A stretch of DNA of 63,542 nt, counting the filler, from Pseudobdellovibrionaceae bacterium (lineage in GTDB: Bacteria; Bdellovibrionota; Bdellovibrionia; Bdellovibrionales; UBA1609), in assembly GCA_030591685.1 (NCBI GenBank). It is 9 parts of 9 records of this genome, joined end to end, with 100 filler letters (N's around TTAATTAATTAA, not from the genome) between each part and the next. Parts side by side here need not be neighbours in the genome. Positions count along the whole stretch, not along the records: positions 62,034 to 63,542 come from JAUVAX010000098.1; 8 more parts are not named here. One strand, written 5' to 3'. Of the stretch, positions 9,738 to 63,542 are shown piece by piece; the stretch's first letter is position 1, and every line of letters starts with the position of its first letter. The notes under the pieces are model-generated. The model did not search any database. It saw only the letters and a program-made list of their open reading frames with translations, and was not told the DNA's origin. The translations under genes were made by a program, and so were the position numbers.

Positions 9738-10296
9738 TTTAATGTCCCCGTATCGTGACTTAAATTATACCTAAAACCCCAGCATTTGTGAAAGTTTAAT
9801 TCTCAATTCAGCCTCGGGGCACATGATTATACAAATAACACCTTAAAGTCAGTCCTCCGGCCACAATATAAATCAAGCGCCACATAAATCAGCCTAAACT
9901 TACTATAAGCCGCCTAACTCTTAAAATAGCACATGTCACATGAACGAGCCCCCTCCACTCGACTATAAGCACAGGGGATGCCCCTTCGCGGCCCCTTTTA
10001 ACCATTTAATTTTATTAAAGATTTAGCCTCTCCCGCGCCGTTTGAGCGACAGGGGCCTAAGTGGCTTTTAATTAGGCCCCCCTCGATCCGACAAGCACCC
10101 CTTAACGGCTCATAGCAAAAGCCTGTATTATAAAGTACTTTTATAAAAACCACCCCTATCCACACAAAATAAGACCCGCAAGGTTATGAGGCGCAGAGTC
10201 AAATCTATGCCTTAAGACCTAACAAAAAAAGCTCATAAGCCCGCCGCATTTCATTAGGAGATTGAACTTTTCTGAAATTATTTATATCAAGCTTAT

Positions 10297-58334: not shown

Positions 58335-58451
58335 AGGTTACATTCATTACCAAGAATGATTGGTATATTCAAATCAATTAATTTTTATTATCTATCAATT
58401 TGGATTAAGTTGCATTTGATGAAACAAACTAATAGAAACAAGGAGGTGATA

Positions 58452-59892
58452 ATGAAAGCAATAACAATAGCCCTAATAATGGCTCTAATCACAATAGGTT
58501 CTGTCACTTTCTTTGGCTTAAACTCTCAGGCTAACGAGGCTCAATATTTTCGAGTATGGCAGGGCTTTAAGAAGTCGAATCTTTCTAGTGATCAGTTCTT
58601 GAAGGAGCTCCCTTCTTTTATGAAAGACACCGTAGAGCTTTACGACGGCCGTGGCCTTAATAACTATATGGTTGTTATACCCCCTTCTGATAAGCCAAGC
58701 TTTATTCCTGATGAGTTAGCGTTGGTTGCTTTAGGGTCTGAAAAGACTTACAGAGACATTCGTGCCACCGAAGAAGGCAAAAACTATGGTGCTCGCCACT
58801 GGGATGTCTTTAATAAAGAAAACTCTGCCAGCAGCAAGCATTTTATTAATTACCAAGTAGAGCAGCCGAGTAAACTTAATAACAATTGGACCTACGATAT
58901 GATTGGTAAGCCCATCGATTGGTCTAAGGGTTATTCAGTAGTCTATATTGGCACTCGCCAAAAACATCTATCAAGGGATAGATTTTTAGATCGTTTAAAA
59001 AATCATATTGTACTAGCAAAGAATACTTTAAACCCTTTAGGAATGAATGCTTATATCGTTTTGGCAAATGAAAACTACGAGGTTGCATATATAAACTGGG
59101 ACTCAAAAGAAGCCCATGATGCAGCTTTTGAAAAAGAAAAGTCTAAGCAAGTTTTTGAAGATGCTCAGACTATGTTGGATCCTCTTATGTATCAGCAGTT
59201 AAGCCCATTTGTCGCAGAAAGCGGCGTTACGGCAAACGCTTCATATTCTACGGTATTCAACGGAAGGCCTGTAGAGAAAAAAACATTGATAGTAGTTACC
59301 AGTCATGAAGAATTAGGGGATACCGACAGAAAAACCGGTTATTATTTATCAGAAGTGACTCACCCCTTTTACGCTCTTCAAGATTCAGGAGTCCACGTTG
59401 ATATTGCAAGCATTAGTGGTGGGAAGGCCCCCATGGATGAGTCCAGTCGAGAGCTTTCAGATTCAACGAACAAGCGGTTCTTAGACGAAAAGGGTGCTCT
59501 TTTGGAGGACACACTCAAATTAGCAAGATTAGAACCTAAAGACTACGAGGCTGTTATCTTTGCTGGCGGGCACGGTACCATGTGGGACTTTCCTCGCAAT
59601 AAAGTTGTAAATACGTTCTCTCGTAATATTTATGAAAGTGGTGGGATTGTATCAGCCATTTGCCATGGGCCCGCCGCTTTGTTGGGAATAAAGCTCTCAA
59701 GCGGAAAGCTTTTAATAAAAGGCAAAAAGCTAACAGGCTTTACAAATAAAGAAGAAGTTGCTGTGAAGCTAGAAAAAGTAATGCCCTTCGCCTTAGAAAC
59801 TGAACTAATTAAATCTGGGGCTAAATTCGTTGGTAAAGATAACTGGGAAAGTAATGTAGTAATAGATGGAAACCTCATAACGGGGCAAAACC
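58452..59892 (+). CDS. Exported fusion: N-terminal dimeric alpha-beta-barrel (EthD-like) region plus DJ-1/PfpI (Hsp31-like) domain, 3'-truncated
   Basis: AGGAGG RBS, signal peptide; TGYYLSEVTHP, GGHGTMWDF, SAICHGP, LITGQN; divergent from LysR. Confidence 0.82.
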
Positions 59893-62033: not shown

Positions 62034-62303
62034 GAATCTGATTTAAAATTAAAAATCCCAATTAATAAACGAGTTCCTTTGGGTAGCGATCCTGTGCCCT
62101 TTTTGGGCTATGTGTTGGATAATCAGGGCTACAGGGTGTTAACACGAAATCAGAGAAGATATAAAAAGAAGGTAAAAAGGCTAACGCATAAAAAAATAAG
62201 AGCTAGTTATTTAGCCCAAGTGAAAACCTCTTTTGAGGCTTGGGGGAAATTGAATTTAGAAGAATTAAATAAAATCAAAAACAAGGTGGGGTTCCCAATA
62301 TAG
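62034..62303 (+). CDS. Reverse transcriptase C-terminus (DGR-type), 5'-truncated
   Basis: Open from contig edge: ESDLKLKIPINKRVPLGSDPVPFLGYVL...RVLTRNQRRYKKKVKRL...SFEAW (RT motif 6-7 FLGY plus basic thumb); directly followed by a TR. Confidence 0.8.
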   Translation, partial: ESDLKLKIPINKRVPLGSDPVPFLGYVLDNQGYRVLTRNQRRYKKKVKRLTHKKIRASYLAQVKTSFEAWGKLNLEELNKIKNKVGFPI

Positions 62304-62317
62304 TATAGAGGAGTTTT

Positions 62318-62445
62318 GGCTCCGCGGGCGGGGTTCTCCGTGGGGGGAACTGGAACAATGGAACGAATTCGGGCGTGTTCAACTCGAACTTGAACAATGC
62401 TCCATCGAACGCGAACACGAACATTGGCTTTCGCTGCGCGTTTGT
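62318..62445 (+). repeat. DGR template repeat (TR)
   Basis: Non-coding, GC-richer segment translating as GSAGGVLRGGNWNNGTNSGVFNSNLNNAPSNANTNIGFRCA; 11 AAC/AAT codons between RGG and GFRC; boundaries approximate. Confidence 0.88.
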
Positions 62446-62618
62446 CCTCGGCTTTGACAGACTTGGGGGTATTAAAGTGTGAGGGAAGTCGTAATTGCTT
62501 TTAAAAGCTTACGGCCACACTACAGAAGATGAGTCCTACGGACTGACTTTGCCCCAAGGCACTTCGGAGCCTTCACCTGGGCTAACCTGGGGGCATTTGC
62601 CCTTAAGGGGTCCGAATT

Positions 62619-62921
62619 TTAAGAAACTTTAAGCTTAGTATTTGGCTTTAATTTCTGTAAGTAGCTAATTAGTCGATCTGTAGAGAACTCATTAATACGA
62701 TGTCTTAGTATTTTGCTGACTTTGCCTTTATCTACTTCCATGATCTCACCCATTTGCTCGTGGGTAAGTTTATTTTTATATTTAAACTTTATAAACTTTT
62801 GGCAGATATCCCATCTAAATTGCTCTAGGGCAGTGGGGTTTTCAGGTAACATTAAGGTCCCTTGAGTTTTTTCAAGTTTTTTTAATACGGATTCAATTTC
62901 TTTTTTATTTGGAAAAGCCAT
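62619..62921 (-). CDS. XRE-family HTH protein (HigA-like antitoxin/regulator)
   Basis: LTHEQMGEIMEVDKGKVSKILR..INEFSTDRLISYL. Confidence 0.85.
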   Translation of the reverse strand: MAFPNKKEIESVLKKLEKTQGTLMLPENPTALEQFRWDICQKFIKFKYKNKLTHEQMGEIMEVDKGKVSKILRHRINEFSTDRLISYLQKLKPNTKLKVS

Positions 62922-62925
62922 TTTA

Positions 62926-63216
62926 TTACCTCCTGTAGGCGTTAATTACGCCAATATACATTTTATCTTTTTCTAAAACCCAAATTAGTTTATAAAACTT
63001 CCCTTGAAGCTCTAATTTATCAACCTCAAAGTAAGTATAGCCTCCTTTTATTATTTGAAAGTCAAAAACCTTGCCATCAAACTGCTTTACAAGCTCTAGG
63101 ATGATCTCGTCGGTTATTGTACTAGCATGTTTTTCCTCATAATGGGGGTCAATAATAACTTGGGAGATCTTAATCTCATTAACTACAATATTAACCATAT
63201 ACTCTCGACGACTCAT
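62926..63216 (-). CDS. Small hypothetical protein, candidate toxin upstream of XRE gene
   Basis: 96 aa, ends YKLIW..YIGVINAYRR; AGGAGG inside its 3' end serves the XRE gene. Confidence 0.65.
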   Translation of the reverse strand: MSRREYMVNIVVNEIKISQVIIDPHYEEKHASTITDEIILELVKQFDGKVFDFQIIKGGYTYFEVDKLELQGKFYKLIWVLEKDKMYIGVINAYRR

Positions 63217-63259
63217 CTTTTGCATCCTAACACGGGTTGCTAAATATAGCAACTTTTTC

Positions 63260-63511
63260 TCAGTCTAAGCCTCTAAACTCTATTTTTGAGGCTTTATTTA
63301 TAGTTTCAAAGCTTTTAGGGGTTAAATTTAACGTTTTAAGCCCTCCTTCTTTTAACTCAGTTAAGCGCGTACTTATGGTGTTGGGCTTTCTTTCAAAGTG
63401 ATTTGAAAGTCTTTTTACCGACCATTTTTCAATCCAACGTAAGTTTGCCAGCTCCATTAGGTTGATTTCAGGTTTTCTCCATTGTATAAAGTGTTCTTTA
63501 TGCACTACCAA
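63260..63511 (-). CDS. Small HTH-like hypothetical protein
   Basis: LRWIEKWSVKRLSNHFERKPNTISTRL helix-turn-helix pattern. Confidence 0.5.
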   Translation of the reverse strand: MVVHKEHFIQWRKPEINLMELANLRWIEKWSVKRLSNHFERKPNTISTRLTELKEGGLKTLNLTPKSFETINKASKIEFRGLD

Positions 63512-63542
63512 ATGTTCGGTTAGTGTAGGGTGGTGGCTACCA

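Follow-up and report, generated by a model that had tools for sequence, protein, structure and literature searches.

Some diversity-generating retroelements (DGRs) are cellular and act on lipoproteins, as Legionella LdtA and Treponema TvpA illustrate. In the Bordetella BPP-1 element, the ribonucleoprotein (RNP) contains an RNA whose elements, including an Avd-binding stem-loop, follow a defined order (Handa et al., bioRxiv 2023.10.23.563531); homing of the DGR cDNA to the VR is called poorly understood in the available part of the same preprint. A hairpin 3' of the VR is required in BPP-1 (PMC3240598, part of the text). Accessory genes have been divided into the classes Avd, HRDC, MSL, CH1 and, tentatively, PAG1-4 (Wu et al., PMC5758913, in the portion available), and a helix-turn-helix (HTH) gene with another role lies near the targets of clade 5A (Dore et al., excerpted). 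How Bdellovibrionota recognise their prey has been accounted for only in part, and among the MAT prey-binding fibres of Bdellovibrio there is one whose tip is an Mtd-like C-type lectin (Caulton et al., PMC10769870, available sections).

The window analysed here is a stretch of 63,542 nucleotides from a Pseudobdellovibrionaceae bacterium, in which nine contigs are joined with N44-TTAATTAATTAA-N44 linkers; genes on either side of a linker are not true neighbours. Positions 62034-63542 are one whole contig (G000:C70, JAUVAX010000098.1) of 1,509 bp, which begins inside a reverse transcriptase (RT). The source genome assembly, G000, comprises 2.66 Mb in 98 contigs and is 100% complete by markers. 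It is almost certain that this contig carries a genuine DGR template repeat (TR), its spacer RNA and the end of its RT gene, laid out as follows.

62034..62303, + strand: 3' end of the DGR reverse transcriptase gene, last 89 codons, with the YxDD core beyond the contig edge
62283..62296, + strand: predicted 5' strand of the (reverse-transcription) stop duplex, inside the last RT codons, pairing with 62565-62579
62319..62460, + strand: template repeat, with probable edges drawn from TR/VR identity in relatives
62339-62434, + strand: TR core RGG...GFR, with 27 adenines at 62348-62423
62459..62468, + strand: conserved AGACTTGG box, predicted template strand of the template:primer duplex, IMH*-like
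62476..62521, + strand: covarying stem-loop with an internal loop, positional equivalent of the BPP-1 Avd-binding stem-loop and putatively in the same role
62552..62561, + strand: conserved CCAAGGCA segment, predicted primer strand
62565..62579, + strand: predicted 3' strand of the stop duplex, with cognate pairing across loci
62579..62616, + strand: terminal covarying stem-loop, then an invariant AA, 3' end of the conserved spacer-like RNA

The RT frame is open from 62034 over 89 codons to a stop at 62301-62303, the same frame that a first-pass annotation of this DNA had read as an RT C-terminus. The fragment has zero RT family matches in Pfam and NCBIfam, and is called an RT because it is 45-67% identical to the C-termini of RVT_1 proteins from relatives. 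Matches occur in 4 of 60 relatives, among them the RT of G026 (65% identity over 74 amino acids). The orthologues, 310-370 amino acids long, with C-termini 55-67% identical to the fragment where the core was examined, match RVT_1 and have a GNLTSQ-type (SQ) motif and YMDD.

By homology with G025, the 5' edge of the TR lies at ~62319, 15 nt past the RT stop, and RGG begins at 62339, 35 nt past it; both distances agree with the earlier description of a start-less segment ~15-35 nt after the stop. The TR frame translates as VLRGGNWNN...IGFRCA. A recount between 62339 and 62440 returns the 27 adenines originally reported, 22 of them in 11 AAC/AAT codons, and places the remaining five in GGA, ACG (twice), CCA and ATT. 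Under a looser criterion applied genome-wide as a chance test (34-codon windows with at least 9 AAY codons and at least 70% of adenines in AAY), 23 of 5,301,208 windows pass, forming three clusters, and the printed windows of the other two clusters have no RGG-W-GFRC reading. Substitution at any A-bearing TR codon never yields a stop; random substitution at the TR adenines is computed to give ~5.5e14 proteins with zero stops. The TR is 76-82% identical to the TRs of four relatives.

The TR translates like the ends of CLec proteins, as would the 3' end of an ordinary gene of FGE-sulfatase fold, but a stop lies in its frame 11 codons further up, with zero in-frame starts between that stop and RGG. 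Similarly, an RT of the group II intron or retron kind might be suspected from the best NCBIfam match of a full orthologue, a group II RT model far below cut-off; the orthologous RTs, however, have the SQ motif, an Avd neighbour and A-specific VRs. Both of these origins are extremely improbable. Against group II intron and retron models the G026 orthologue scores 91 vs 300 bits (group II) and 40 vs 235 bits, and group II intron or retron identity was rejected on such scores, which are below cut-off, together with 0 Rfam matches at E<=1 in five loci.

Complete cassettes are found in relatives of the source organism. G026, G025 (a closed genome) and G009 belong to the same family and G047 to the same order, and all four have the arrangement target(VR) - HTH gene - avd - RT - TR, with a bAvd match over cut-off in G026. 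Mismatches between TR and VR lie at TR adenines in 19 of 19 cases in G047, 18 of 18 in the G026 core and 16 of 20 in G025; G009 has 17 A-mismatches and matches at 89/89 non-A positions. Over 20 distinct pairs (25 rows minus 3 duplicates and 2 that align poorly), 277 of 322 mismatches fall at TR adenines, window edges included. In a quick RT tree, in which the window fragment fills 24% of the columns, the fragment groups with same-family RTs (support 91), which argues against misbinning, and these RTs are nested in a clade of 53 rows (support 100) that excludes 19 further RTs from the phylum. The first-pass assignment to a DGR is thus borne out both by complete orthologous cassettes, in which TR and VR differ specifically at adenines, and by the RT tree, the check by RT phylogeny that it proposed having placed the fragment among DGR-cassette RTs of the same family. 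Its Bdellovibrionota host also stands, a same-family genome being one of the Pseudobdellovibrionaceae, order Bdellovibrionales.

Locus scans recovered 34 metagenome, 3 viral and 23 genome loci, the last comprising, by name, 16 Bdellovibrionota, 6 'proteobacterium' and 1 weak match in Paceibacterota. Among 401 genomes sampled evenly across the phylum, an RT of this clade (E<1e-80) occurs in 12 and the accessory in 13, three being query sources. Contig C70 is probably the 3' third of a chromosomal DGR whose lineage is centred on Bdellovibrionota and whose parts run target(VR) - HTH/Avd-like accessory - avd - RT - TR - spacer RNA.

Individual loci depart from this arrangement in several ways. Between the G025 TR (L008 7321-7454) and VR (10011-10144) there are four clustered non-adenine differences, at which the window TR shares the same GGA codon and G026 and G009 have AAC; the G025 TR looks as if it had changed after the last homing, to judge from these codons. 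In G009 C27 (L018 1-932, - strand) the N-half of the accessory is fused in frame to the RT and avd is missing; despite this fusion, the C27 target matches the C128 TR at 89/89 non-A positions. Two to five or more diverged TR-like copies lie downstream of the RT in L020 (2800-8120), L025 (6334-7018), L057 and L108, which are possible multi-template cassettes, and L048 (2253-3358) has the rearranged order target - TR - accessory - avd - RT. A second, distant DGR-like RT lineage (L016; L114-L131), mostly with avd, is present in many Bdellovibrionota genomes, and G026 carries a second avd-RT-TR locus of this distant lineage.

Judged by conservation and covariation, the element reaches beyond its first-pass limits, to ~62616, as structured RNA. 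About 170 nt 3' of the TR are conserved across 23 aligned loci, chosen from 34 distinct sequences, and correspond to none of the Rfam families. A five-helix model, with four helices taken from RNAalifold on the same alignment as was counted and the long-range one from reading the alignment, has 94% of 710 cells paired and two-sided change at 22 of 31 pairs; 0 of 500 shuffles came as high, and slid controls gave 35-53%. Two-sided change is seen at 4 of the 8 pairs of the template:primer duplex. For the 17 nt that follow the CCAAGGCACT motif, the RT end of the same locus is the best pairing partner in 15 of 23 loci, and this cognate stop-duplex pairing is best or second in 20 of 23 (mean -20.5 kcal/mol for the own locus vs -12.5). 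The single-sequence fold of the window itself recovers the model helices, the stop duplex in part (z -2.3).

The roles of the duplexes and stem-loops are assigned by analogy, from the matching order of the BPP-1 RNA. In support of these assignments, TR/VR identity stops at the AG of the AGACTTGG box in 11 of 20 pairs, 4 of them contiguously and the other 7 through an 8-12-nt block set apart, 35-52 nt downstream (shuffle p<=0.01); 9 of the 20 pairs have no box-end identity block. The priming nucleotide is probably the A at 62561. The TR is thereby flanked by the structured RNA expected of a DGR, with a primer duplex, a stop duplex and stem-loops, whose functions are likewise read from BPP-1.

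The first ~3.5 kb of the cassette is absent from the G000 assembly. BLASTN with word size 7, the search for VR copies proposed in the first-pass annotation, returned the TR itself and zero VRs in the 98 contigs, C70 ending inside the RT; an adenine-wildcard scan (at least 55% non-A match) and a search for VR or target by tblastn and clade HMMs again gave the TR alone. Across G000, PF00078 and PF03781 had 0 matches each, homologues of the relatives' CLec domain, accessory, avd and RT core were not found, ORFs running off contig ends had zero match to the relatives' targets, and no flank repeat arrays, a marker of the missing part, were seen. One public run (X1) contains the stretch, and X2 and X3 hold next to nothing of it. 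The X1 contigs cross the TR at a depth of 3-4 with zero variant letters, leave the first ~98 nt of C70 uncovered and provide zero upstream extension. The exact TR-scaffold pattern had 0 matches in the metagenome collection.

This lack of an upstream cassette, in an assembly complete by markers, would also be expected if the copy had the same ancestry but were a dead remnant, its upstream part deleted or interrupted. Decayed kin copies exist (the G009 C27 accessory-RT fusion lacking avd; split accessory ORFs in G025, G009 C114 and L068), and TA-like genes and transposases flank cassettes. However, the RT frame stays open to the contig edge, all 11 AAY codons are kept and the RNA helices are intact; a repeat-rich flank and a variable VR would, moreover, be expected to break a low-depth assembly of 98 contigs. 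A dead remnant is unlikely, and from the sequence the cassette in the source organism is, with good probability, intact and active.

Downstream of the RNA, 62619-63252 (- strand) holds a TA-like gene pair, an HTH_37 protein and an uncharacterised 108-aa ORF, on which PADLOC gave 0 matches. Close homologues of the pair flank the DGR in G026 (L007 8653-9249) and G025 (L008 3581-4183), and run X1 contains a variant copy with 15 differences. A 5'-open HTH-like ORF at 63260-63541 (- strand) resembles, by eye, L007 7994-8302 beside the same gene pair; together with the TA-like pair it suggests a shared island context. Elsewhere in the window, a long ORF at 58356-59892 (+ strand) running off contig C7 presumably encodes, by eye, a secreted domain and a DJ-1/PfpI-like domain.

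The targets in relatives end in a CLec/FGE-like domain, with Pfam FGE-sulfatase matches from weak to over cut-off, placed behind Fn3, Ig-like or fibre stalks; the G025 target matches Mtd (E 0.009). A lipobox pattern is present in 16 of 21 full-length target rows, two of them doubtful by eye and two duplicates, and the rows lacking it have secretion signals by eye. On the whole the targets are lipoproteins or long secreted fibres that end in a CLec domain, and they are not evidently of prophage origin. The cassette of closed G025 has dnaX/recR-like housekeeping genes and TA-like modules as neighbours, and no phage genes were seen within 20 kb (annotation by eye). In an indirect test of kinship with the MAT prey-binding fibres, whose conserved N-terminal domain is multi-copy in Bdellovibrio, a 4-row profile of the N-domain of the fibre targets matched 1 of 81 genomes, weakly; such kinship, like a role in prey recognition, is hypothetical.

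A DGR of a prophage or mobile element, diversifying a phage receptor-binding protein as the first-pass annotation had allowed, could account for three loci, close relatives of each other, that come from IMG/VR contigs. Near one of them is an ORF that, by its motif, is putatively lysozyme-like. Among the long targets, one is similar to a cyanophage fibre shaft (E 6.7e-8), and the accessory HTH is excisionase-like. Set against these are the lipoprotein or secretion signals at the start of same-family targets, the chromosomal surroundings in G025, and the 3 viral loci to 34 metagenome and 23 genome loci; a phage origin is disfavoured and most improbable. Stand-alone CLec paralogues also occur in G025 (4), G047, G079 and G407, where ~40-65% of non-A positions match the resident TR (the G075 and G114 TRs being left out of the comparison). 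They were rejected as current targets for their poor non-A match and their lack of flank arrays; L172, L175, L178, L179, L173, L155 and L154 are such paralogues, fixed or orphaned former targets.

The accessory and the flank arrays are seen in relatives only, where an accessory ORF immediately precedes avd in 39 of 39 distinct loci long enough to judge (64 loci examined, 3 too short). Its N-part is an HTH_17/excisionase domain in 26 of 26, its middle a disordered, low-complexity linker and its C-part a four-helix bundle. The best structural match of the C-domain is Xcc0516 (2gsc; Z 14.1, rmsd 1.9 over 100), and Avd reaches Z 11.9/11.8 (4dwl: Z 11.9, rmsd 2.0 over 94). A Z of 12-14 falls in the range that unrelated helical bundles attain, pectin methylesterase inhibitor reaching Z 12.1. 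By features the C-domain is nearest to bAvd clusters (0.87-0.88); by sequence profile the probability of an Avd match is 1.7%, with zero Avd matches in Pfam/NCBIfam. A predicted complex of four Avd and the accessory C-domain scored 0.00, in a run made without folded controls, and was given no weight either way. The family comprises 92 clusters (50% identity) at E<=1e-30, and relatives of the accessory also stand before RTs of the other clade. The accessory of closed G025 breaks into two frames where its linker contains a perfect 8-nt tandem repeat (L008 8178-8309), which could be a slippage (phase-variation) switch or decay, to judge from the repeat; split accessory ORFs are also seen in L011 and L068.

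In the 350 nt after target stops, CGGAAA/TTTCCG-type hexamers number 9.0 per locus vs 0.38 elsewhere, with at least four in 22 of 28 loci, and most VRs are followed by tandem nTTGG units. An upstream duplicate target in L021, still diversified, lacks the CGGAAA array and keeps the nTTGG units, which favours the former as an operator and the latter as a target element. In L065, L047 and L059 the CGGAAA array stays by the target though other sequence intervenes before the accessory, which speaks against a plain promoter role. BldC-type HTHs polymerise head-to-tail on AT-rich direct repeats (PMC5859096, part of the article).

A working mechanism can be outlined, the first two steps drawn from sequence features and the last three from BPP-1. 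The TR encodes the CLec binding face, its adenines placed in AAY codons that allow ~5.5e14 stop-free variants. The RNA from the last RT codons to ~62616 is predicted to fold into the stop duplex, the template:primer duplex and two stem-loops. The RT and an Avd pentamer may bind this RNA and cis-prime cDNA near 62458-62461, with adenines miscopied and synthesis halting before the stop duplex. The cDNA would replace the VR at the 3' end of the exported, probably lipoprotein, CLec gene just upstream. The Xis/BldC-like accessory would bind the CGGAAA/TTTCCG array before the accessory-avd-RT-TR genes, its simplest role being that of a regulator. The expected outcome is a population with varied surface ligand-binding tips.

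A bolder and rather doubtful proposal is that the accessory HTH coats the arrays 3' of the VR and its Avd-like bundle holds the RT-Avd RNP, that the cDNA-attached primer strand swaps onto the TR-identical block and nTTGG units, and that the diversified proteins are prey-binding adhesins. If protein-guided homing and the prey-adhesin reading were both true, predators would gain a mutation-driven change of prey range.

In the literature searched, with subscription papers outside its scope, Bdellovibrionota-hosted DGRs were not found, nor were descriptions of an Xis-like HTH plus Avd-fold accessory or of target-flank repeat arrays. The available portions of PMC8934634, PMC10907252 and bioRxiv 2024.11.15.621889 contain neither this accessory nor Bdellovibrionota DGRs. 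In PMC5758913, as far as available, the main text has no HTH and the supplement searched no Bdellovibrionota names, the PAG1-4 sequences lying outside the comparison. Of six metagenome members tested, two already appear as DGRs in the supplements of Roux et al. (PMC8144416, in part), where entries seen are given as 'Bacteria' or NA, with neither host phylum nor accessory genes; absence there is weak, the supplements being partial and the taxonomy liable to hide Bdellovibrionota under broader names. The window itself contains a partial copy of an element whose kind is known. Dozens of natural variants exist in the lineage, which combines a covariation-mapped RNA with a defined 3' junction, distinctive flank repeats and a DNA-binding third partner, and through them questions of homing and prey recognition become testable.

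The accessory resembles Xis/BldC-type HTH_17 proteins (Pukovnik Xis 4j2n, BldC 6ama) in its HTH domain and S23/IVP four-helix bundles (Xcc0516, 2gsc) in its C-domain; unlike either, it fuses both domains by a low-complexity linker and is tied to avd-RT. With the BPP-1 DGR (mtd-avd-TR-Sp-brt; PDB 4dwl, 8ub7, 1yu1) the element has in common A-to-N change between TR and VR on a C-terminal CLec domain, and Avd. The RNA follows the same order as in the BPP-1 RNP: stem-loop, primer strand, 2 nt, stop-duplex strand and a stem-loop with adenines. In contrast with BPP-1, the TR comes after the RT, and one strand of the stop duplex comes from the RT 3' end or the bases that directly follow, where BPP-1 draws on avd codons; the spacer sequence is unrelated, an extra HTH/Avd-like gene is present and the targets are cellular exported proteins. 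The VR flank also differs: it has nTTGG units in tandem and, frequently, a second block, identical to the TR, that lies 35-52 nt downstream, and flanks in relatives also have GC hairpins (by eye). The RT-TR order, which the first-pass annotation had set apart from BPP-1, does differ from it but is not novel, since avd-RT-TR is architecture B2 (Wu et al. 2018, PMC5758913, in the part available), with the same core and an upstream target; unlike architecture B as defined in that part, cassettes of the relatives carry a further accessory gene. Also close in kind are LdtA, TvpA and cluster Cell_TM PC_00001 (Roux et al. 2021, as partly available), which likewise join a chromosomal DGR to a surface lipoprotein of CLec/FGE fold.
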